DNA from: Patellaria atrata CBS 101060
Taxonomy: Eukaryota
Assembly: GCA_010093705.1 (NCBI GenBank)
Contig: MU006090.1
Span: 1,391,817-1,455,816 of the forward strand
Direction of reading: 5' to 3'
Length of the DNA stretch: 64,000 nucleotides
Shown here in pieces: positions 2,418 through 60,502 of this stretch (position 1 is its first letter; each line of letters begins with the position of its first letter). A program made the position numbers and the translations under genes. The notes under the pieces were generated by a model. It was not told where the DNA came from. It saw only the letters and a program-made list of their open reading frames with translations, and did not search any database.

Positions 2418-4682
2418 ATACCCCTGAGGTGTCTTGGCATCATTGGTATCTGTACTGTAAGATGTGCCGAGTATATGCAACTGAGATTAGTACGCTCGGT
2501 ATTCCGGAATCATTGTAATCTTATCTGTATATATCTAACGCTTTTATTGTAATGTCCTCCACAATGATAAGATTAATACATATTTTCTGTATTATAGCTC
2601 TTCAGTTTGCATGTGAGTATACAGCTAATATCATTACGCACTTAGCTGGAGCTCCATCGCCGTTCCTCGTTGATGTACAGCGAATGCACACGTCTCGTGC
2701 CGTCGTGAATTGGCGCTCTTGCCGTACAACGCACACGTTGGCGTTCACGTTCGAAAGGAACTTGGATGATCTATATATCGCTCGCCGACTATATAGGGAT
2801 AAGTGCTTTTCTGCTACCGTACATCTGAAGAAAAATCTTCCTTACGCATCGCTACTATGAGGTGGATTGACGAATCACGTCTAAGTGCGAGTTTATAAGC
2901 AATATAAGGCAGGAATAGGGGTTTTTTGTACGACATACCGCGGACAATAACGGCGCAGATTCTAGTTCCGATATATACCAGATAAGACTCATAAGAACTC
3001 CCTGGATGTTGTACTCTCGTGTAATTCGCGGATTGTTGAAAGATGACCTGGAAACTGAACTTTGTCCTTTGATGTCTGGAATCCCCGTTCAGCCAGTATC
3101 GGCCGAGATGGTTGTTCTACTAGCTTGTAATGCAGATATGTGATCCTGAGCACCCTGTTCTGGGAGTTCAGAGAGAATGTGGCCAACGACAAGCTGAAGG
3201 TATCTCACCTCTTGAAATGGATTCCTAATAGGATAAGCTAGTGGGAATTGAGATCTATTCGCTCTATACTATTCTAGGAATCACTTTTAGATGAATGTCA
3301 CTCCTGGGTGTCAATATATTGAGTTGAAGAGTAAGGTATCACCATCGAAAGGTAGAGCTCCGTACTCATCAAACAACTGAATGCTAGAAAGAAAGCCTTC
3401 ATCAAAATTATGGTCAAGTAATCACTAAGGTAATGCGATATAAATAAAAAAAATAAATCAAAGAGTAAGAAAACAAAAAAGAATCCACCTTTCGGTGCTT
3501 ATCGCGGTAGATGCACGGCATTATGAAACTATACCAAGCGCGCCCTAGTGGACTCGAACATGAAACTAAAGGTGAGTTGAGTCGCTGACGGATGTCTCCC
3601 CCAACTAGACCATATGACCAGGTTTTGATACCGACATATTTCTCCGCGGGCAAATATGTAGATGGTTACCAGCAAACGGAAAGAGCTACCGAGACTTGGC
3701 GAAAAGGAGAGGGAAAGGGAAGCAGCGGGTTTAGGGGAAGGAACGACAGAGCTGTTATCTTGCTCTTGAACCTGTACACGTGATTTATGAATGGGTAGTA
3801 TTTGATGATAATGGAAATCCGCTGAATGGCTCCAGGTTCGAGCTATCACAAGGAAAAAGGTGAACATAACAGTAAGAGAAGTCTGTCCCCTATCCTCGAT
3901 GAAGATTAAAAGGAAATTCGCCCAATGCTTAGATTTCCTTAAGCACAAATTCAGATACTAAGTACTGGTGTAGCTTGGATCTAGATAAGGAATCACACCA
4001 GGTTTTGACTTGTTGGAACAGACTATGACATTTTATATGGACACTAACTATAGGACACGGACATTAGGAATTTGATGATCTCTGGTGTGAGAATAGTGTG
4101 AGAACAGGGTGGTAATCTGATGTGGATGAATTCGTTTATCATGATTTTGATAAAGTCCGTTAGCTGAGCATACCGCCAAGGTGAAGCTCTTACTTTATGT
4201 TACTTCTGTCTTTTCAATTCGTTGACTATGTGATTTCACTGGATGACTACTGCTTAACTCTGGAAAAAAGTAAAAATTAGAACGTGGATTAGAGAAAACT
4301 TGCATTCAGATGAAGATCACGTCTTCGCAAAGTAACGGATCCACGGGAGAGATAAAGTAGAAGATAGATGACTTGTTCTCACTGCTCTTCAAATCACCGG
4401 AAATCAGTTAAAAGGAGTTTATCACATAACACTGAACTTTACGCGAATACAGGTGCAACCGTCGCAAAATTCCAACAGGTAGTTCCACCTTCTCATAACG
4501 CCATCATTGTCTGCTCGTATGGAGACTCTCTAACCTAAGCAATCAATCCTCCCATAGAGTGCTTCAAACGCCAATCCCATGCATATCCGATCCGCCCCCG
4601 GATCCTGGGGATTAATGCACACCAAACACATGGATAGAGAAGAGAAACAGATGGTGAACAGTGGGAGGATGTTCTTGAACAG

Positions 4683-6552: not shown

Positions 6553-7673
6553 TGTAAGAAAGAGGAGGTTCGTCGCACGACAAGCGAGAGTGTATATACC
6601 GGTATTAGATAAGTGGAACTAAATCATGAGCTTAAATGGTCGGTAAAATGTCGCGCATTTGGGTCCGGGAACAAAGAAGCAACGCGACGTGGTCGTGATT
6701 GCTTTCAGTGAGTGAAGGGAGAGGAAAGGGAAGCGGGTGGTAGAGCAAAAGGATGACGGGGAGGTGAGAGGGTGAGAGGGTGAGAGGTGGTTTGTTGCCA
6801 AACTCGCTCGATTTGGGGATTGGCGGCTCCCGGAAAATCAGGGACGGATGCTCCACCCAAACGAACAGTAAACAGACCAGTGCGACCACTTGTTTTGCTT
6901 CAAATATGGACGATCCTTAACTTTATTTTGGCCTCTAGTCAAAAAGATAACACTGCAGACAACTCAAAGAATTGACTGAAAGATTTATATATGCTCTGAT
7001 CCTTATATATCGGGCGAATGCAGTATTCACGCCCAATGACTCCTCTTATTGTGTCATTGAAGGTATTGTCCTTACCCATTGTCATCGTCAGGAATGAAAT
7101 GATTCTCCCACCTAAAGGCAGATAGCGTAAAGCTCTTTATCGTACAGTCGTATTTGATCTTTCCCCTTTTGCAACCAATCGTAATTTATATTGAAATAAG
7201 ATGATACAATAATTTCTATACTTACTGCACCATAAAGTAGATGTTAACTTCCCCTAAGCGCGAGTCGTTCTATTTTCGCGCGTCTCACGTATCTTCGCTT
7301 ATTCGCTTATCTCTCTCTGTCCGCGCATTTTCTCCTACTGGTCAATACCTCCCAAGGTCCCGTCAGACCTCGTATCCCACACCTCTCACGAGACTGTCAC
7401 CACTTACCACTGGATCACAGCTATTGTACTGGCTACTTTTTCTTTACACATCAGCTCTGAATATGTCGTGAGTAGGTGACGCGTATCGACTCAGTTTACC
7501 ATCGAGTCTTGTGAGAAAACTTGACTATGCCTTCCTAACCTCACTCTTTCCGTTCGCCTTGAGGTTCGTTTTCTTCATCTAAGGCTGCTCTATATCCCCT
7601 TATCGTATGGTCTTTATGTACAATCATTGTCAGGATTTAATGGTACTATTATAGTGCATGTATTCTATCTGAG

Positions 7674-10600
7674 ATGCCTTTGATGATGGAGGACGATCAG
7701 TACATGGAAGACCTCTTCGGAGATTCTGAAACTGTTCAACTACCTACATTCACTACCCTCAAAGGCTTATCTCAGCGTCTAGATGAACTACAGGAGAGTG
7801 GTTGCTGTCAGTAAGTCTACTAATAGACCTAGTATATCAGTCAAAAGTCCCTTAATCCACTCGATACGCCGCTCACCCGTTTTCTAGGAAAATTGCATGG
7901 TCTAAGGCCGGAGGTATCGCAACTATTACCCGCGACGGACGTGGAATAACGTTGCGAGCACTTGTACGAAACCCAGAAAATGGAAAATGGGAACTCAGCG
8001 ATGAGATACCCATACAGATACCAGAGTCACATGATGACCATTGCTTCGTTCACCTAGCCTGGAGTTACATGGGCAATGATCTTGCAGTCGTTGACGATGC
8101 CGGCCGGATTATGATTTTCTCTACTGAGACAGTACTTGGTAAAATGAACATCAGCCGATCAAGTGCCGTTGATTCGGAAGATGAGTTAGGGGCTATTGTG
8201 GGCTTATATTGGCTACCTGTCGCGCCTCACAAGGAAAAAGTACCTTTACATCATCCATTCGATCAATCACATCTAACGTGGATCTAGTCCGCAGTGTTCT
8301 GGTCTGGACAACGTGATAGTGATCAATGGGTTTACCGTATGTCTCATCACCTTCCAGCCGGTCCGCACAATCCGGTTCAGAATAGGTCTGCACTAGTATG
8401 CGTTACAAGGAGCGGGACTGTCCGATTACTGTACCAGCAAGTCGATGGACAATGGCTCGAAACTGTCACTGAGCTAGAGAATATCACCACTGCTTCTGAA
8501 ACCTTGACTCATGCGTCGTTTACTGAACATAGTAATGTACAGAAAGCCGGTAAATCCGAAGAGAATGGTGAGATAACCAGGGTCCTTTTTGTTCGGACAT
8601 AGCTCTAAAGTAATCTTTAGATGACTCTCTCTTTTTAGCTATACACGACACATCTGGTCTGGTTAGATTATACAGAATCAAAATCAATTGGAATGGGTTT
8701 CCCCAGCAACCGAACCAGACTCCTGCTTTTGCAACAATGTCTCTGAAGACGGAAGATCATTGTTTCCCGAGCCGACCAAGTGGGGAATTTGATGGCCAAA
8801 ATCTACCCTCCTCCCGCCAACTAACCTACCTCGAGATGATTCCAATAGCACTTGAGCAGAGAGAAGTAACTTCCTTGACTATCATGGCTGTGTTCTCATC
8901 CGCTCCTATGCCACCAAGTCTGATGGACACTACACAGCAAGCACATAGCCCGTCGAGTGTAATTGTCCGATGGGACTTCCAACAGACGATGAATAAGCTT
9001 CATCCGAGTTTCGATCAACTGAGCTCCAAAAAAAAGCCAGCTACTAGTATAGATGCCAGGGTAAGCATCCTGATGTGCTCGTCATAATTTGTGTTAACCC
9101 CCTGTTAGAAGTCATTTGTATTAAAGCGACATCCCGACGTTGTAACTAATAATGTAGTACTTGCAGTCTTCCCGCTGATACAGAACACTCTGTACGCATT
9201 CTATCTGGGCGACGGTAGCGTAGAGTTCCGGAGCAGGAATTCGATGGAGCCTGTGGCTGCGGACTACAACAATGACCTAGTCAGCTCCCTTCCCCAAGCA
9301 GGGTTTGGATTTCCAATAGATGAAGCAGGTATTTGAACTTACTTGATTCGTTCCTGTCGACATGGTTAACGCTATTCAGGAATTCAGACTGCACTCTCGC
9401 CAAATTTCTGTCTAGCAGCAGTTATGAAGGCTGATGGCTCAGTCCACTTGAAAAGGATGGAGTATACATTAGGCTCGCTGGCTACTGCTGACGATGATCC
9501 GAAATACTCCGCTGCTGCTGCAGCTATAGCTTTGCAACACGGTTCTGCTTGCTATCAATACTTCATCAGCGATGATCTGTTTGCTATGATCCCAGAAGAT
9601 ATAAGCCCATCATTTAGACGAAAGCTACTAAGTTTGATTTATAAAGGCCTCAACAATAACCTCGACTTCACAGCCGAAGAGACACAACAGAGGCAGTCAC
9701 AGAACCTCTTCCGCTCCCCAACCTTACACAAATGCCTCAGCGCGCAATGCATTCTCGGTTCCAGCACCCCCTTCAAACGCGACTACGCCGCCAAAGTCTC
9801 CTGGGTGACTATGAACATCCGTCTCTCCACCTACATCCTCACCATGACCGTAAAAAATAACCAACCCCTAGATGCCGACGTCGCCATCTCCGTCGTCGGC
9901 ATAATCCGCTGGTGCGGCGACCTCATGGCTTATCTAATCGGCGAACTCATGGACGCCGCCAATGCCCTCCGCGGCCACGAAGACGACCTCGAAGCCATCC
10001 ACGCGCACATCGTCACGACAAACTCGCCCGCTCTTCCGTTACTCTTGTCGTCAATACCAAGACTGCTGTTGAGATATGCCTTGAGGCCACTAAGATACGC
10101 ACAAGGTCATGCCGCCCAAGCAGCTAAAAATGCCACCCCTACCGCCGCAACCCGCGCAGCCCGCGCAGCCTTCGCAACGCTCCTTCAACTCTCTGCCGCG
10201 CGGCCTGTCCAGCCCCCCGTCTTCGACGAGCTGATCGGCGCCGTCGACTCCGCTATCCGCAACGCTTACAAGGACGCCGGCCTCGACGAAAAAGCCCGCG
10301 GCTTCGCCGAACGCGAGTTGCTCACCCGCGGCGAAGTCCCCGGCCCCCTCGCCAAAGTGGTTAAGTCCCTCCTGACGGAAATGCTCGACAAGACGATCTC
10401 CGACGCGAGCGTTGATGCCGCGCGTGTGCGCTGGACCGATACCGTCACGTTAGGGGTTACCGACGATGAGAAAGCGCGGAGATGGTGGAAGAGCCATACG
10501 TGGGATATCATCCGGAAGTGTACGCTACCGGAGGGCCGGAGGTTGAGGAGGTGCGCGCGGTGTTGTGGGGTCATGGAGGATGCGGGACCGGTGGGGAGCG

Positions 10601-10731
10601 TGTATGGGAAGGACGAGAAGGGGTCTAGCGCGGAGAGGGGGGGATTGCACCAGTGGGTCTACACGACGCAGAAGATCTGCGTGTGTTCGGGGAGTTGGGG
10701 CGTTGGGGGCTTCAGTGGGGTTGGGAAGTGA
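7674..10731 (+). CDS. MED16: Mediator complex subunit 16 (Sin4)
   Basis: Multi-exon gene. N-terminus MPLMMEDD..RLDELQESGCCQ|KIAWSK, WD-like region (HLAWSYMGNDLAVVD), LHPSFDQL, and C-terminal RRCARC..W..QKICVCSGSW zinc ribbon typical of fungal Med16. Confidence 0.9.
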
Positions 10732-10825
10732 GCGTTTGGAAAAGTCATATTGGAAACATCGTAAAAGTAGTTGGGAAATGTGTGATTTGTTTACGTATCT
10801 CGTTTTATCTTACATCGCTCTATAT

Positions 10826-11406
10826 CTATTGCTTCTTCGCACTCTCTGCGCCCTCGTTCTGCATCCCCTCACACCCGGTTGCGCGGCCTAGCATCTCTTC
10901 GGGCTTTCCATAACCCTGGTTTTGCGGCTCGCGGCCCTCGCTCGCGTGTTTCATGTCTTCGACCGCTTGGGACTTTTGCTGCGCGCCGGATTGTTGCCAT
11001 TCTTGGGAGCCGGTCACGCTGCCGATAGTTTCCTTAAAAAGGGCGTTAGTGGGAGGTTTTGTTACGGATACGGTGAGTGTGTTGGAGGGATGCTGGGTAA
11101 GAACTGGCGAAGGTGGGGGAGATATGGTGTAGGCTGTATAGCAAGTATAAAGGGGTTAATGGGTGCGAGGTTTGGGCGAGGGGAGACGCGTACGGAGAGT
11201 GTACAGTGGGGAGAAATTTGATTCTCGGGAAGGGGAATATGTACAGCGACGGTACAAGAACATGAACATGAAAGTGAGAATTGTATCAAGGGAAAGGAAG
11301 AGGTGTGTCAAGCAGGGGAGCACGGGATACATACGACAGCGGCTGCTTTGACGTATTCCGCATGGCTGGCAACGAGGCCGGGTTGTTGGTTATTGTTCGA
11401 GGACAT
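10826..11406 (-). CDS. Small hydrophilic CsbD/LEA-like stress protein
   Basis: Exon 1 11406-11335 (MSSNNNQQPGLVASHAEYVKAAAV), ~300-nt intron with CTAAC branch site, exon 2 11032-10826 (ETIGSVTGSQEWQQSGAQQK...GKPEEMLGRATGCEGMQNEG). Confidence 0.75.
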
Positions 11407-53644: not shown

Positions 53645-54339
53645 TCAAGCTCTCCGAATCTCCCACTTCACCTCCTTAATACTCACCTCTTCGCCCGCCT
53701 TTTCATCATACTCATACCATTCCCCCTCAGAGAGATCTATCCCAGTAAATGGGGTGTTCGACTCGATACCGGTAGCCAGGAACTCGCCCTATGATAAACA
53801 ATCAGACACTCCCTTCCCACGAGCCATTATGGAATGGAAGGCCGTCCTACCTCAGGCTTAAACTCAAGAAATTCCAACCCCCTACAATCAAACTCAAGTA
53901 TATTAACCCTCTTCGGGGGCTCCGACTGCTCATACGGCACCGGCGGCGCCTTGATGTTCGCCGAGTGTTCCCTCTGTCATCACCCAAAACCCATTAGCCC
54001 CGCGTCTCGTCAAATGTACAGTTTCATTTGCTTTTTGTAGTCTTGGCTGAAGTTGGCGGACCTTACAGTTCTTACACTTCCATACGAAATTCGCCTCCCC
54101 GCGGCTCCCGCTCTGCTCGTGCGTCTCGTGCCGATTTAGAGTCACGAAGTTTGGATGCGTTTCGCGGCAGGACGTGCATTGCACTTTGAAGGTGTAAGAG
54201 AAGGGGTTGGAGGCATCGTCGAGGGGGCGGAGGGAGGTTACGCTGGTGAAGAAGTTAGTGGGTTAGTTTGGATATGTCGGCAGAAGAAGGGATGGGAGTA
54301 CCCGATGAGTTCGGCGGTTAGGGCAAGGGCGAGGACCAT
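53645..54339 (-). CDS. CXXC-motif zinc-binding protein (CZIB / UPF0587 / C1orf123 family)
   Basis: Four exons: MVLALALTAELIG|VTSLRP..FKVQCTSCRETHP..GSRGEANFVWKCKNCK|REHSANI..FDCRGLEFLEFKPE|GEF..DLSEGEWYEYDEKAGEEVSI. Confidence 0.9.
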
Positions 54340-55144
54340 GATGTGCTTGAGCTTGGAGGGTAGAAGAGGTTATGGTATAGGTTTATGAGAAAATTAGCTC
54401 TGGAGGTTATGTTGTTATGGTGGAGCATCGAATGACATAATATTATGAGGTGCAGGATTACTAGTGATTCCAAGGTGGGGTAGCTTTATATAGGACAGGA
54501 AATATTACAAGTTCGAAGAAGAATATCTTTGTAATATCTGGACACTTTATCAGTAATTGAATTTCTAGCTAGTTCCCCTATCTGATATAAGGTAGCTACA
54601 AAGTACTCGAAGCTTTCGCACCACCGGTGCCTCCGGCTAATATTTCGTATGAGACTCGGAATACCGATAGGGCTTGCAAATTGTCCTTTGCAACGAATCC
54701 ATGGTAACCTCTTGGTTTGACCGATTCGTCTTGACACCGAGTCTTTCCTTTGTTCATTCTATTGCTAATGGATTTTTTGAATTATCACTCCGCCAACTCA
54801 GGAATCCCCATGGTTAGAATGTACTAGTCGCAATGTACGGGACGTGGGGAATGCGTCTGTTTTGATAGAAACAGTACGAAAGACACGAAATGGTTATAGC
54901 TGCTGGCGTAAGAAATCCCCATTAACCCCAGTCGGACCTAACGCTCATTCTGGATCTAGACGTTCTGCCCGCCGTAATGGACCCAGTCAGAATCCGCGAA
55001 GGATGGGAGCTGCCTATTAAGTCATGTCTCCCCTTGGGGAGAAAATATGGCTCCTTTCAGACCTTGTGCCAAACGTGACCCGCATCTTTCTCTCGAACAA
55101 TCTCTTCAAAATAAGTTCGATCGACACCAGGGCCATCAGAAAGG

Positions 55145-55975
55145 TTATCGTTCGTATATCTCGGATGGGGTCTGAGTTAAGAACGCAAAGCCGGCTGCGA
55201 TTTCCACTAGTTCCTCATTTCTGCGCTCTTCCCGCTTCTTCTTCTCCATCTTATAGTAAGGCAGTGTCGTAGCTGCACTTAAATCAATCCACCGAACGTT
55301 TTGGGAGTTGTCCAGAATGTTAGTGGACTTGATATCCTCATGCAGTATCCCTGGCGCGTGTAAGCCTTTAAGACCCTCCCATACACTGTCCATGATGTCT
55401 TTAGTGAGCTGAAATTCTGCTAACGGCAAGCCTGGGACATATTCGTAGACTAATGCGCGTACAAGGAATCGCATGTCCTAGGCATCCGGTCCCACGAAAA
55501 CTCTTGGACATTAAAACGCCTAGCGATATGACTCTCTAGAGAGCGATCAACGCACATCCATCCGTAGCAGAATGGTGTAAATTTCCGTTTAATTCTTGGG
55601 ATATTAGAGAGGAATTCGCCCGGCACTCTCTGATGAAATGATCGCAGTGTGCCTCTATCTCTTCCTGGGAAAACTTCAATCTTCTTAATGGTATATGGAG
55701 ACGTGGATTTTAAAACTTGAACTGGAGTAGATATGTAAGTTTGACACAAAAAAATGTGTGATATCATCTTACCATTTTAATAGCATATCTCTGAGAACCC
55801 TTGCTAGCTCTAAATACATATCCAGCACCGCCAGAGCCGATCCGTGCTCGAACCTTAAGCTCCGAAGGGTCGAACATAGGAATACCTTCACAGCATTTGG
55901 GGGGAATAGCGCCTTGCAAAGACCTGATTAGGAAGAGAAGTGTTGAGTAAAGGAGCGGATGTTGTGTTTCGAAGT
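55145..55975 (-). pseudogene. Atypical protein-kinase-like gene (fungal 'FTA2-like' type), pseudogene
   Basis: RIGSGGAGYVF..YAIKM| (intron 55772-55722), FIRECRA, FTPFCYGW, VRALVYEYVPG, GILHEDIKSTNIL, WIDLSAATTLP. In-frame TAA at 55710-55712 and frameshifts near 55585 and 55470. Confidence 0.75.
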
Positions 55976-56815
55976 CGTATTGTTAGGCATCCGACAAATA
56001 TACCCGAATAATCAAGGTCACGTGCACAAGTGGTGCGTGCTCGTGTCTTGTTAAGGTACGGTACAGTACTTACCTCATCTTGGGTTATCTTAACAACTCA
56101 CGATCCATCGTCACCAGTATCAGCTAATAGAAGCTTACGTGCATCAAATATGTATAACTGCGCAAATATCTCTAATTGAGCTGATTGCTCGCAGAAAACA
56201 GGACTAACCAATGTAAAAGTTACACTCGATCTATCATCGGATGTATCACGGGATGAACTCTAGGTGGACGAGTCCTCATGGGAATAATGAATGCCATGCT
56301 TATCTATAAGATTTGTCTCTACTGTTCCAGTGATTATGCATATCGGGGGCTACTCTAGGGTGTCACAGCAGTTCCTAAAGAAGGTTGATAACCCGATACT
56401 TTTCACACACATATGACCGCGCAAAGCCAGTTTTGAATGCAGGATGTCACACTGAGGTGGGCGCCACATCTTTGGCCAAAATGAGGGCTTAAATTGAGTC
56501 AAACGACTTCACGCAAAGCAATAACATGCGTGCGCGCATTTTCCGTTAAGTTACCCCATGAGCTCTGCAAAATCAGCCCTTGTCTAGTGACTTCGATAGC
56601 TTTTATAACTATTTCCTTCTTCCCTTTATTTACCAGTCTTCTGTTATCTAACTCACTACCTGATCATACGAATTGCATAAATGGTCAGACAATAGGGTTC
56701 CCCTTATACTTCAGAACTTCCGTACCAGCCATTCACTGGGTGTTTTTAAGTGTATAGGGGGCGACTGATTCCAATGTAACTTCAACACCGGTAGACTGAT
56801 CATAAATCCATCATC

Positions 56816-57481
56816 ATGGCAACGACGTTGCTCGAATATCTAACACAACCGAATCCTCTGGTCAATCGCGATTATGCTAAGACAGGTTCAAATACGGAGT
56901 TGGAGAAAGAGGGCCAGTTTGAAGGTTCTCGACCATGGGAAGACTTCAACTACGAGCATGTCATAGCATGTTTCGGTGACATTCTGCAGCTCCCGTTGCC
57001 ACCGCAACGCTTTCCCCCTCCAAGCGCGATATCTCCAGATCATCTATTCATAATCGACGAATCTTCGGTGACAAATATTCTCGTTAAGTCAAATCATACA
57101 ATAGTTCAATGTGCTTGAAAATTGCATCAGAGCTCTTGAAGAAAGATTACGGTCTTATTCTACCGATATCGTGGTCTTGGGGCTCTCTATCTACCCTGGA
57201 AGAAGATTCACGGTACCGTCCTGACTGGGCTGGTACTACTAAGCAAAGGAATCATCCACCATTTCCAAGTCGAATGCCTGGAGAAACGAAGGATTCTGGA
57301 AAATGGAAAAGCTCGAATCGAAGAAACATAGTACAAGGACGCAGGGTGAGAAGGTTCGAATAAAATTTCGACCAATTCAAGAGGGATAGGAGAGGGCAGT
57401 CGGTCAGGAGAAAGTAGTCGGGCAGGAGAGAGTAGTCGGGTAGGAGCGAATGCTGGAAGGAGAGGACGGTGGGGAGTCTGA
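56816..57481 (+). pseudogene. PD-(D/E)xK nuclease-like fungal protein, frameshifted and truncated
   Basis: MATTLLEYLTQPNP..RPWEDFNYE..IIDESSV, a -1 frameshift at ~57115, then RYRPDWAG..MPGETKDSGKW; the frame is lost soon after. Confidence 0.55.
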
Positions 57482-58258
57482 TACGGCTTTCTCATCTTGT
57501 CCGTACAGTATCGCCTGAGGGAGCTTGAAAAGGGAGAGTGTAGTAGACCGAAGATAGGACGAGAAGGGAATAGATACATTGGTGATATTTATGGGTGTGC
57601 ATAATATCCACAGTTTAGCAATTGGTATTTTTTTTTTTTAATCCATTGTATTGCGTTATCTACAATACTGCGCATGCAGCCTCTTGGGCTATGGCGCTAC
57701 TCTTCTATCTACATAAATCCCTATTCTAGGGCTATAATATGTCTAGTGAGAGTGTCTGGGGATTGAAGCTCCCCAGTTGTTCAAACTCTGTAGTTTAATC
57801 CAAACATTAGAAAAGCTGAACCAACTTCACTATATCCTTTGTTCTTCAATTCCCTGCATTATATAGCGATCTAGTTTCTCCCCTATGTTCTATTTAGCAA
57901 TTGGTATAGCGGCTATGCTGTGCGCACAATTCGGATATTGTGAATAATCAAGTTGAAGGAAGATCAAGGGTAACCATATAGTGAACATGTTGGCCTAAGC
58001 AAGCGGCCATCTTATACAAAGCTTAGCACTAATCATTGCTCATTCTCTAGTAGAAGTGCAAGCATTTCTTGTGATGAAGTGAGGAAGCTCCCCGGATACT
58101 CTTCCGATGTGGTTTAGCTTACTTTTAAGTCGTGAGGGTGACCTCAGCCGACCACCCAGTTGTTCCGCTCAGGAACCGACAACACAACTATCTTAAATCA
58201 TTCATATACTCTCCATAACTGATTCCCTTCAAATCTCCTACAGTATGCTCCGATAACA

Positions 58259-60502
58259 ATGCAATCTCTCTGGTCGCGGACAGCCCAAGCTCGATCCGCC
58301 TGCGGCTGTCCGTCATGTTTAGCTACTGCGTCCGCAATTGCACGTTGTAGCAGTCTCGCCAATGCGAAGCGATTGTTCCAGCTCAATTCCTCGTCGACGA
58401 TATTTTACTCTACTATCTTCGCCGCGGCTGCGGTCGCGGATGCTAGTGCGAAGCAGAAAAGGAGGAGTCAGTGGGATAGGGCTATCACAACCGCGAGAAG
58501 GGAGTTGGACCAATTGAGAGCCCGGTCAGATCTTGCGGTCGCAAGTAATGGGGAGGTCGCTTTGCTAGAAGTGGGAGATGAAGGGTCTAGTCAGTTAGAA
58601 CAGGCGAGGGACAGTAACATCAATGACGAAGAAGAGCTGAGGACTGGTTTATCAGAACCGGGAGAACGAGAGCATGGTCAATTGCATTCTAACCACGGGG
58701 ATGTAACCGCACAATCTCATTGGAAATATGCCGAGGAACCAGTTATACCGAGGCTGGATGATGGAGAGCAGGTTCCTCTCTCCAAGGCAACGGGGTTTAC
58801 CATTAGGACATATCGATTTATGAAAACTACAACCAAGAACGTGGAAAAAAAGAGTGCATATCCCACAAATGAGAGTGAGCCAATCTCGAATAAGTCTGAT
58901 TTAAGTCAGTATTCTTTGCTTCCGGGAGCACGTCGTCCCAAATGGCCTGCTAATACCGGACCTACTCTCAACGCTCGTCATCTACCTCCTCAATCCCTGT
59001 GGTCAACCGACGAAGCGAGGAGAAAAGCTTTAGAACACCGATATACTCCTAAAAAATTACGACTCACTGGTCTCATCGTCATGCGTTTAGTCCTGGTCTT
59101 ATTTCTTTATGCACGGATTCATGACTTCTCCCCGAGGCATGCAAGTGATTTGCCCATTACGGTCAAAGCGTTAGCTTGCAAAAGTCGGGAGCAATTGCTC
59201 GACCTACTTTTGGAGGTACAGAGTGAAACAGATTATTGCAGATCTACCTCTGTTGCCGACGATGCTGGAGAAGGTCGAATACTATCTGTCCCCATACCGA
59301 GATATCACCAAGATGATGACGGTGTATTTCATATGGTAACAGCAGATATGAATAATTCCATCATGAACATCTGTGAGAAACACCATCATAAGAAGGGGAT
59401 GACATTTAAAGATTTGATAATCTTTCTATCTGATTTACTTCTGGATTCATCATCACCACCAAATGTCAGCACTTGGAACGCACTAATCTCATGGTTTGCC
59501 CGATGGGGGCGTGGTGGCATTGTTGATGCACTCGTCAGCAGCATTATTGACGGCTATGTCCGTCCAAACGAGTATACCTGCGCTGCCACACTCACGCATT
59601 ACACTCGACGTAACGATGCTAAGAGCTTCGTCGATTTTGTTGCTAGGATGCGAGGCGCAGGTTTCAAGCATTTGATGCTTGCGAGACCGAATATCGCGAT
59701 CACAGACGCTGGCCGGTCACGTTTATTGCTTATTCCTGGTACCAGCAAGATCATTCAGAAGGTCTACCCAACACCGACGGTCTTCAACGCTCTCATGGGT
59801 GGAGTTCTCCAATTCGCCGGTTTCGAACGTGCCGTGGAAATCGCTGCGGAGATGCGTGAGGATGGCTGGGGATTAGATATTCCAGGTCTCACGCTGCTGA
59901 TTCGAGATTGCGTGAAAAGAAGAGATTGGAATTCTGGCTACGCAGTATGGAAACAGCTGCTCAAGGTCGCTCGCATGTCAGACGGTCGGAAACCTGTCGA
60001 TGTCGTCGCATACCACACTATGATACAGTTATGTAACGTTTGCGAGAAGGATGATAATGCAGAAAAGATCTACAAGGATGCCGAGGAGAGAGGTATCACG
60101 AGAAACAGAATAAATTCCATCCATCGAAAGATACCTGTCGCCACGCAATCTGCCGAGGATAATGTGCCCGCCTTGGAGAATCCGGAGATCGTGGCTGCTG
60201 GAATCGAGAATCTGGCTCCTAAGTTCCGCAAATGGGGAACGGTTTATGAAAACACTTCGAAGATTTACTTTTTCAATCAGGAGGCCAATCACGATAGTAC
60301 CGTCGAGGCTAAGGTATCTGACATCACTGACCGGGAAAATAATAATGAGGCTGAGGCGCCCGAAACCAGCGAGCTCAATAACGATGATGATCATCGTGTT
60401 TCCATGAACAATCGGCCTCCTTCTATTTCGAATATGCCAGGACATCTTCTCTCGCATAGCAACCAGCTTCCTACGGTGACTGTCAGCCCTGGTGCCGCTT
60501 AA
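58259..60502 (+). CDS. Mitochondrial pentatricopeptide-repeat (PPR) protein
   Basis: Presequence MQSLWSRTAQ..CGCPSCL; PPR-like motifs PNVSTWNALISWF, RPNEYTCAATL, PTPTVFNALMGG, DVVAYHTMIQLC. Confidence 0.82.
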   Translation: MQSLWSRTAQARSACGCPSCLATASAIARCSSLANAKRLFQLNSSSTIFYSTIFAAAAVADASAKQKRRSQWDRAITTARRELDQLRARSDLAVASNGEVALLEVGDEGSSQLEQARDSNINDEEELRTGLSEPGEREHGQLHSNHGDVTAQSHWKYAEEPVIPRLDDGEQVPLSKATGFTIRTYRFMKTTTKNVEKKSAYPTNESEPISNKSDLSQYSLLPGARRPKWPANTGPTLNARHLPPQSLWSTDEARRKALEHRYTPKKLRLTGLIVMRLVLVLFLYARIHDFSPRHASDLPITVKALACKSREQLLDLLLEVQSETDYCRSTSVADDAGEGRILSVPIPRYHQDDDGVFHMVTADMNNSIMNICEKHHHKKGMTFKDLIIFLSDLLLDSSSPPNVSTWNALISWFARWGRGGIVDALVSSIIDGYVRPNEYTCAATLTHYTRRNDAKSFVDFVARMRGAGFKHLMLARPNIAITDAGRSRLLLIPGTSKIIQKVYPTPTVFNALMGGVLQFAGFERAVEIAAEMREDGWGLDIPGLTLLIRDCVKRRDWNSGYAVWKQLLKVARMSDGRKPVDVVAYHTMIQLCNVCEKDDNAEKIYKDAEERGITRNRINSIHRKIPVATQSAEDNVPALENPEIVAAGIENLAPKFRKWGTVYENTSKIYFFNQEANHDSTVEAKVSDITDRENNNEAEAPETSELNNDDDHRVSMNNRPPSISNMPGHLLSHSNQLPTVTVSPGAA

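Follow-up and report, generated by a model that had tools for sequence, protein, structure and literature searches.

The DNA analyzed here is a 64-kb stretch of contig MU006090.1 of Patellaria atrata CBS 101060, hereafter the window (64,000 nucleotides in all), and our subject is an island of ~3.9 kb within it that separates a CXXC zinc-binding (CZIB) gene on the minus strand from a PPR-repeat gene on the plus strand. The island holds two divergently oriented gene relics: a small FTA2-type protein kinase pseudogene on the minus strand (55145 to 55877) and, on the plus strand, the N-terminal half of a PD-(D/E)xK nuclease-like gene (56816 to 57345). A preliminary description of the locus had reported such a divergent pair, broken in both members, in the ~3.9 kb between CZIB and PPR, and both Pfam matches and a reading of the frames bear this out. 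The kinase has suffered one nonsense mutation and two frameshifts, and the nuclease, with one frameshift, is truncated as well. The spacing given there, ~0.85 kb, does need revision; measured between the ATG positions of the two relics, the genes diverge from an intergenic region of 938 bp (55878 to 56815).

The kinase relic starts at an ATG (55877 to 55875) and ends at a stop codon (55147 to 55145). Its exon 1 (55877 to 55773) and exon 2 (55721 to 55145) flank an intron of 51 nt (55772 to 55722, GTAAGA..CAG) at the position seen in relatives. The residue set of an active kinase is present in a broken frame: the Gly-rich loop (GSGGAG, 55838 to 55821), the beta-3 Lys (AIK, 55778 to 55776), the alpha-C Glu (readable in ECRA), the catalytic Asp/Asn (HEDIKSTN, 55342 to 55319), and the metal-binding Asp (IDLS, 55288 to 55277). 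Of the lesions, the first is an in-frame TAA at 55710 to 55712 on the minus strand, the fourth codon of exon 2, where relatives have FKFY or FKFF. A frameshift follows at 55584 to 55596, between ..QELNGN and FTPFCYGW, where the tblastn segments and the frame reading alike change frame, and tblastn places another at 55462 to 55480, separating ..WDRMP from DMRFLVRAL; here the downstream frame has a TAG (55480 to 55478).

Two related metagenome loci, L001 and L002, which are described below, bear on the identity of this relic. The L002 kinase matches the window in three successive frames (tblastn, joint E = 4.2e-34, 39 to 49% identity), the kinase fragment of the window matches L002 in turn (tblastn, E = 7.9e-24), and exon 1 of the L001 kinase matches 55865 to 55773 (tblastn, E = 3e-5). 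The last kinase open reading frame (ORF), 55145 to 55477, scores above the Pfam Pkinase cutoff (E = 2.7e-8, 34.0 versus 31.7 bits), while matches of the fragment to FTA2 (E = 1.3e-3, 18.8 versus 30.2 bits) and WaaY (E = 1.4e-3) fall below theirs. Among PDB sequences the fragment weakly matches ordinary kinases, RIPK1 being the best (9.9e-5), and in the ESM Atlas it lies among Ascomycota clusters with Kdo, RIO1, APH, or FTA2 members. A word-index search over "longer" lengths with the C-terminal kinase fragment gave no match, which by the tool's own account is weak evidence. Through its homology to the L002 kinase, we assign the relic to FTA2 as a predicted member of this small Kdo/RIO-like kinase family.

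The nuclease relic has its ATG at 56816 and covers residues 1 to ~174 of ~351 (tblastn, alignment A1), including the Glu of the first conserved helix in DESSV, the PD at 57220 to 57225, and the ETK at 57283 to 57291. When P0003, P0005, P0007, P0009, P0010, and one family member lacking its N terminus were aligned to the window by tblastn, only residues 1 to ~174 were found, in two frames, with a single frameshift at ~57103 to 57133. The C-terminal half of the gene had no match anywhere in the 64 kb in these searches. With the QxxxY helix gone, as are the later strands, the window copy does not encode a complete catalytic domain. A word-index search with the N-terminal plus-strand fragment, again over "longer" lengths, was likewise without a match, and the tool rates this too as weak evidence. 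The preliminary description had carried the locus to 57481, but the ORF at 57350 to 57481, which would account for that end, lies outside the gene; we rejected it as a spurious product of the 18-bp tandem repeat (3.3 copies, 57388 to 57446, no strand assigned) that it traverses. The repeat lies directly past the end of the nuclease homology at ~57345. With three lesions in the kinase and the C-terminal half of the nuclease gone, the window copy is a double pseudogene without function at present, and neither gene can give a functional product.

The nuclease family to which the plus-strand relic belongs is rare. A search with the 91-aa ORF that contains RPDWAG...PGETKDSGKW recovered 10 proteins at an E value of ≤1e-3, six of them at ≤1e-10, among 1.84 billion representatives, and a family profile recovered 17 proteins of 157 to 767 aa among 7,999 scored candidates. 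Full-length members have ~350 to 410 aa. The named ones, all hypothetical proteins, are from Glutinoglossum, Geoglossum, Brigantiaea, Fonsecaea, and Ophidiomyces, genera that we take to span three classes of Pezizomycotina; the patchy distribution expected from the preliminary description is thus what we found. Pfam had no match for seven of eight family members (E ≤ 1), and the eighth showed a C-terminal WW domain only. Neither PADLOC nor NCBIfam matched any of five family members or the second exon of the kinase from a further metagenome locus, L003, and searches of PDB sequences gave no match for the 91-aa fragment, the family profile A3, or the same L003 exon.

Two further observations on the family should be recorded here. 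A WW domain ends some of its members (P0007 residues 376 to 401, Pfam E = 4.3e-7, and the C termini of P0014 and P0010 in alignment A3), which suggests that these bind proline-rich or phospho-Ser/Thr-Pro partners. Others (P0001, P0004, P0006, P0008, P0020, P0022, P0032, and P0033) have only 97 to 231 aa and are partial, mostly retaining the N-terminal half as the window relic does; these may be further pseudogenes or truncations at contig ends.

An alignment of 21 sequences has four invariant positions, D135, G153, T155, and K156 (numbering of P0005), and at least 90% conservation at E81, P134, D154 (E in a few), Q183, and Y187; alignment A3 contains no conserved cysteines. The AlphaFold2 model of P0005 built on the 21 sequences (pLDDT 75.2, pTM 0.78) runs through a helix (81 to 107), a strand (116 to 120), the PD, two strands (136 to 140 and 148 to 155, the second ending in D-T-K), a helix carrying QxxxY (171 to 190), two more strands (195 to 199 and 203 to 208), a disordered insert (213 to 266), and a further strand and helix. 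The canonical PD-(D/E)xK core has the order alpha-beta-beta-beta-alpha-beta. The putative catalytic residues stand where that core has them, with D135 just before strand 136 to 140 and D154 and K156 at the end of strand 148 to 155.

A wide structural search of this model with VIA-align (48,161 chains) placed five chains at a Z of ≥8 and 24 at a Z of ≥5. Among the best 10 rows, eight are nucleases of the restriction-endonuclease fold, and the other two are a human mitoribosomal protein. BpuSI leads (Z = 10.4, root mean square deviation 3.1, 145 residues aligned), followed by DrdV (Z = 9.4), 9y1l and 3ijm (both Z = 8.1), the Vibrio vulnificus HsdR protein (3h1t_A) and TT1808 (both Z = 7.8), and, further down, NgoMIV and DUF820 (both Z = 7.0). 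A best Z of 7 to 8 is common for models without a relative, and the fold assignment is made because the top two Z scores, the near uniformity of the list, and the placement of the catalytic residues on the right elements point the same way jointly. On this modeling evidence, the plus-strand family is predicted to have a PD-(D/E)xK core fold, as the preliminary description had proposed from the motif; it was the model combined with VIA-align, and not Foldseek by itself, that vindicated the proposal.

The disordered insert of P0005 (213 to 266; A3 columns ~290 to 420; pLDDT <50) is a conserved stretch rich in Ser, Thr, and Arg, with the pattern ..FRRTKSxEP..RPxRQ..HxRxxSIxS..SGSxYTDxGNPDINE. It is a candidate phospho-acceptor loop for a partner kinase.

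That the two genes belong together is seen at other fungal loci. Metagenome contigs were scanned with the family profile; 16 stretches matched, and five of these encode a relative (L001 to L005). In all five, an FTA2-type kinase gene lies directly upstream of the nuclease family member, on the opposite strand. The nuclease and kinase occupy 9899 to 11134 (+) and 8322 to 9485 (−) in L003 (FTA2 E = 4.6e-28, 98.8 bits), 2838 to 4019 (+) and 1472 to 2649 (−) in L004 (FTA2 E = 5.6e-28, 98.5 bits), and 9959 to 11209 (+) and 7453 to 8212 (−) in L002 (FTA2 E = 4.5e-11, 43.3 bits, with WaaY and Pkinase matches as well). All three kinases pass the curated FTA2 (PF13095) cutoff of 30.2 bits. L005 repeats the arrangement, ORFs, and frame pattern of L004, and in L001 the nuclease (612 to 1859, +) is accompanied by kinase exon 1 and the start of exon 2, at which point the contig ends. 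Of the 34 ORFs scanned within ±10 kb in L002 and the 23 in L003, none but the adjoining kinase matches FTA2. The preliminary description had asked for homologues that recur as divergent neighbors, and this is the situation in all five loci.

These loci fall into two lineages and do not count as five independent observations. L001 and L002 have 99.3% DNA identity, and their nucleases match the family query P0005 at 59% protein identity; L003 and L004 have ~94% DNA identity, and the nucleases of L003 to L005 are only 25 to 27% identical to P0005. Despite this distance, the nuclease of the L003 lineage retains the E, the PD, the DTK, the QxxxY, and a RYGYLITD strand. The kinase of L003 has SGGTQG, AIK, ECRAY, SRDVSPRN, and VDFG in the corresponding places. 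Having neither an APE motif nor a long activation segment, the kinase of the pair is atypical. An intron follows AIK(M/L) at the same place in all kinase copies. From ATG to ATG, L001 has a distance of 264 bp and L003 one of 525 bp, compared with the 938 bp of the window. Other neighbors vary between the lineages, and none is CZIB or PPR. The intact module is a conserved head-to-head pair of Pezizomycotina, consisting of a nuclease of ~350 to 410 aa and an FTA2 kinase of ~270 to 330 aa.

An AAA ATPase gene also occurs within a few kilobases of the pair in both lineages (L003, 5011 to 7135; L002, 11879 to 12409; L001, 2535 to 3053). DUF7025 and a fungal AAA lid are present in that of L003. Relative to the pair, the side on which the gene lies differs between the lineages. 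Genes of this AAA family are common in fungi, and the proximity may be chance.

The copies differ in their state of decay. Both genes are open in L003. In L004 and L005 the kinase is open and the nuclease has four frame-changing indels and a stop, in an identical pattern in both contigs. Between L003 and L004, the ratio of nonsynonymous to synonymous substitution rates (dN/dS) is 0.32 for the kinase (233 codons) and 0.46 for the nuclease (368 codons). L002 shows the reverse state. There, a noncoding element of the long terminal repeat (LTR) type (8191 to 9611, 1,421 bp) splits kinase exon 1 at the G-loop codons; it has identical LTRs of 254 bp and TG..CA ends, shows a 5-bp target duplication, contains internal tandem repeats of ~100 bp, and is absent from L001. 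The identity of its LTRs means that this insertion is very recent. Together with the window, where both genes are lost, these loci represent every state of decay, a turnover of the kind usual among dispensable conflict genes. The joint decay of the two partners, which the preliminary description took as fitting a module, is accordingly a weak argument, given that the partners decay singly in L002 and in L004/L005.

Around the island, the window is densely packed with housekeeping genes of a filamentous ascomycete. Large ORFs in the window match Sir2, Med16, mitochondrial ribosomal S5, importin-9, HORMA, threonine synthase, a GDE1-type phosphodiesterase, and others. On the left, the 5' exon of the CZIB gene lies at 53930 to 54342 on the minus strand (PF05907, E = 3.7e-24, on the ORF at 53930 to 54262; the start at ~54342 is read from the sequence), and on the right the PPR gene occupies 58259 to 60502 on the plus strand, with its ATG at 58259 and matches to PF13041 (E = 6.1e-10), PF01535, and PF13812. 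The G+C content is unremarkable (38 to 49% in the island, 44 to 53% in the flanks). Neither gene of the pair has a further copy elsewhere in the 64-kb window.

An insertion of 264 bp (57629 to 57892) on the minus strand follows the nuclease relic and precedes the PPR gene; with its 15-bp target-site duplications (57614 to 57628 and 57893 to 57907), it takes up 57614 to 57907. The duplicated 15-mer occurs exactly twice in the window, and none of 100 shuffles had two matches; the poly-T at the left end of the insertion corresponds to a poly-A on the minus strand. In sequencing run X1, the contig depth of this insertion is ~25,400 compared with ~325 for the flanks, and in X1 and X2 it is ~75 times that of the flanks. 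The depth, the poly-T, and the target duplications together identify a high-copy retroposon resembling a short interspersed element (SINE). The 264-bp repeat has no further copy in the window, and Rfam and tRNA scans of the island, this insertion included, had no match. A third run, X3, from a different study and a different organism (organism B), contains a 285-bp contig identical to window positions 55946 to 56230, part of the divergent intergenic region, at a depth of 2.9. Apart from copies of the 264-bp repeat, X3 has no other island sequence; the contig may have been carried over or be a trace of the same organism.

We think it probable, at moderate confidence, that the island is the dead remains of a conserved two-gene nuclease-kinase module of Pezizomycotina, one that may work like a split Spok, Spok being a meiotic driver of Podospora and Fusarium. 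In the passages of Vogan et al. (2019) that bear on function, the K240A substitution in SPOK3 abolishes killing and the D667A substitution abolishes resistance, and the kinase confers protection in cis as well as in trans (PMC6660238). Urquhart and Gardiner report in the corresponding part of their study that DNA is disrupted (PMC9972908), and a Fusarium study describes, in the relevant section, the same toxin/antidote logic in yeast along with many pseudogenized copies (PMC12693581). By analogy, the nuclease of the intact module would be a DNA-damaging effector, and the kinase expressed from the same promoter region would hold it in check. The substrate of the kinase might be the nuclease itself, with the conserved Ser/Thr-rich loop as a possible site, or else the target of the nuclease. 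Two genes acting in this way would form a toxin-antidote or conflict system. Taken alone, that toxin-antidote or conflict function is a tentative assignment, which we consider slightly more apt to prove wrong than right.

A structure prediction for the complex bears on whether the partners touch. For the L003 pair (nuclease residues 1 to 335 with kinase exon 2), the median score was 0.52 (runs of 0.52, 0.00, and 0.63) and the best control reached 0.25, with a partner pLDDT of at least 66 and a run agreement of at least 0%. Of 78 solved complexes, 51 attain the mark used for such predictions, as do 2 of 108 mismatched pairs, and scores of 0.60 or lower are wrong more often than right. The prediction thus lends weak support to binding between the L003 nuclease and kinase. 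AlphaFold gave an unusable model of the L003 kinase exon 2 by itself (6 alignment rows, pLDDT 32.8).

Several results weigh against a split Spok-like module. Foldseek found no match to the P0005 model in the PDB at E ≤ 0.001, its weak rows being mostly restriction-type nucleases, and the A3 profile retrieved nothing from PDB sequences. The five linked loci represent two lineages only, besides the window. None of the 17 proteins of the profile search (157 to 767 aa) has a kinase domain or is named Spok, leaving no similarity to Spok at the level of HMMER, and neither protein of the pair shows the Spok cysteine cluster C-x3-C-x13-C-x5-H-x7-H or the N-terminal coiled coil. The window locus sits in an ordinary housekeeping region, with neither a transposon-rich nor a giant-transposon context. 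The nuclease dN/dS of 0.46 is not clearly different from the 0.32 of the kinase. Finally, in L002 the kinase is disrupted and the nuclease ORF is intact and encodes a protein identical to that of L001. This state is unexpected for a constitutively lethal nuclease and argues against one that kills whenever its kinase is missing, though the insertion is very young.

It is possible, if doubtful, that the analogy goes further and that the pair is an unfused Spok killer outright, with an HsdR-like nuclease as killer and a Kdo/FTA2-like kinase as antidote made as separate proteins from one bidirectional promoter, and possibly with meiotic drive as the result. If this were so, the copies at hand would form a natural set of haplotypes, namely "antidote-only" in L004 and L005, "toxin-only" in L002, and "both dead" in the window.

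The ordinary alternative is that the pair encodes a lineage-specific, dispensable DNA- or RNA-processing enzyme and its regulatory kinase, with a function that is not selfish and that has been lost in many lineages. The core-genome context of the window locus is what one would expect of such genes, as are the dN/dS values below 1 for both genes between L003 and L004, the intact nuclease ORF beside a disrupted kinase in L002, and the lack of transposon or giant-element context at the loci seen. Such an enzyme would sit less easily with the small number of relatives (10 among 1.84 billion representatives, 17 by profile) and their scatter over three classes, or with pseudogenes in three of the five distinct haplotypes, and the same domain pair is, in the passages on SPOK3 cited above (PMC6660238), a proven pair of killer and resistance functions. 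We regard this alternative as unlikely.

A non-self-recognition or immune system, in which the kinase senses a trigger and activates the nuclease in the manner of bacterial kinase-nuclease defense or of fungal allorecognition loci, draws on the same data as the split Spok-like module, that is, conserved linkage, patchy occurrence, rapid turnover, and broken alleles. An activating kinase would also explain why L002 tolerates the loss of its kinase beside an intact nuclease. We nevertheless judge this quite unlikely, for no sensor domain (NLR, HET, or repeat arrays) was found in either protein or in the immediate neighbors, and a kinase that stays open and constrained after the nuclease has decayed, as in L004 and L005, fits an antidote better than an activator. 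Last, that two unrelated pseudogenes are adjacent by chance, or that the breaks are assembly errors, might be entertained from one window but is hardly credible when the two families are head-to-head in five of five other loci of two lineages, which contradicts it, when no break interrupts the neighboring ORFs of 1165 and 759 aa, when the Logan contigs of runs X1 and X2 show no differences across the island (the runs are probably from the source sample, and this support is therefore not independent), and when the C-terminal half of the nuclease is wholly absent.

The main interest of a Spok-like module in two genes lies in its separability. We know of no account of the mechanism by which the Spok kinase neutralizes the Spok nuclease, and that mechanism is hard to study because both activities reside on one protein. 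If the pair were an unfused Spok, each activity could be expressed, mutated, and purified alone, and haplotypes with a single broken partner would show the effect of losing it. Quite apart from Spok, our analyses define a fungal PD-(D/E)xK family that carries no name in the libraries searched, and they mark part of the Pfam FTA2 "kinetochore" family as a nuclease-linked kinase. For annotation, both genes of the window should be treated as pseudogenes and not called coding. A full-text literature search found no description of a two-gene module of this kind, although the survey of nuclease-kinase architectures by Zhang et al. (2016) may bear on its novelty.

Among known systems, Crinkler (CRN) effectors join, in their C-terminal modules, a restriction-endonuclease-fold domain to a kinase in the setting of eukaryotic conflict, according to the part of the Fusarium study that treats them (PMC12693581, citing Zhang et al. 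2016), and the preliminary description had linked the pair to them. That link is not supported. The parts are separate genes here, and no header or translocation domain is present. Membership was rejected because family members lack a relevant Pfam match (none in seven of eight, a WW domain only in the eighth) and because their N termini (MPTLL..) give no sign of a leader. The nuclease domains of restriction enzymes of types IIG/IIL and I (BpuSI, DrdV, and HsdR) provide the best structural matches to the model core and share the PD...(D/E)xK...QxxxY arrangement. The fungal family differs from them as a stand-alone eukaryotic protein that lacks methylase, helicase, and specificity domains; it has ~80 extra N-terminal residues and the disordered Ser/Thr-rich insert, and the sequences are 7 to 13% identical when aligned by structure.

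FTA2 (PF13095), to which the partner kinases of L002, L003, and L004 are tied by scores above its cutoff, takes its name from the Schizosaccharomyces pombe kinetochore protein Fta2. We take it to be placed in the protein-kinase clan, and the overlapping Pkinase and WaaY matches are consistent with that placement. A kinetochore role for the partner kinases was considered and rejected in view of the rarity and dispensability of their genes and their link with a nuclease gene.

Spok itself (SPOK1 to SPOK4 and the FuSpoks) offers the nearest comparison, and the preliminary description's comparison of the domain pair with Spok is sustained by the composition reported for SPOK3 in the structural passages of Vogan et al. 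(PMC6660238). As described there, SPOK3 has a PD-(D/E)XK motif spanning residues 219 to 240 and a QxxxY motif, its best HHpred match is the HsdR protein of V. vulnificus, and its kinase domain is nearer to the Kdo-type eukaryotic-like kinases (ELK) than to typical protein kinases. To the extent of that account, the likeness is threefold: an HsdR-like PD-(D/E)xK nuclease with QxxxY, the same HsdR having reached Z = 7.8 with the P0005 model; a catalytic D...K span of about equal length, D135 to K156 in the family against 219 to 240 in SPOK3; and a small ELK/Kdo-like kinase as the second function. Both systems are also scattered across Ascomycota, with many Spok pseudogenes mentioned in the Fusarium study (PMC12693581). 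The ESM Atlas points in the same direction. Of the 30 clusters nearest to P0005, 25 are unnamed Ascomycota (scores up to 0.97) and the other five form a set headed by SPOK2_N, whose head cluster (score 0.93, 189 of 256 features) has the SPOK2_N domain (Pfam PF27653) in 76% of its members; we treat this as a language-model lead. The clearest difference is one of architecture, the window and all five related loci having two divergent genes where Spok is one protein of ~700 to 800 aa. In sum, the pair is not a Spok gene, though it may work like one, and the unfused arrangement could be the ancestral state of the fused Spok genes or the product of a later fission of them.

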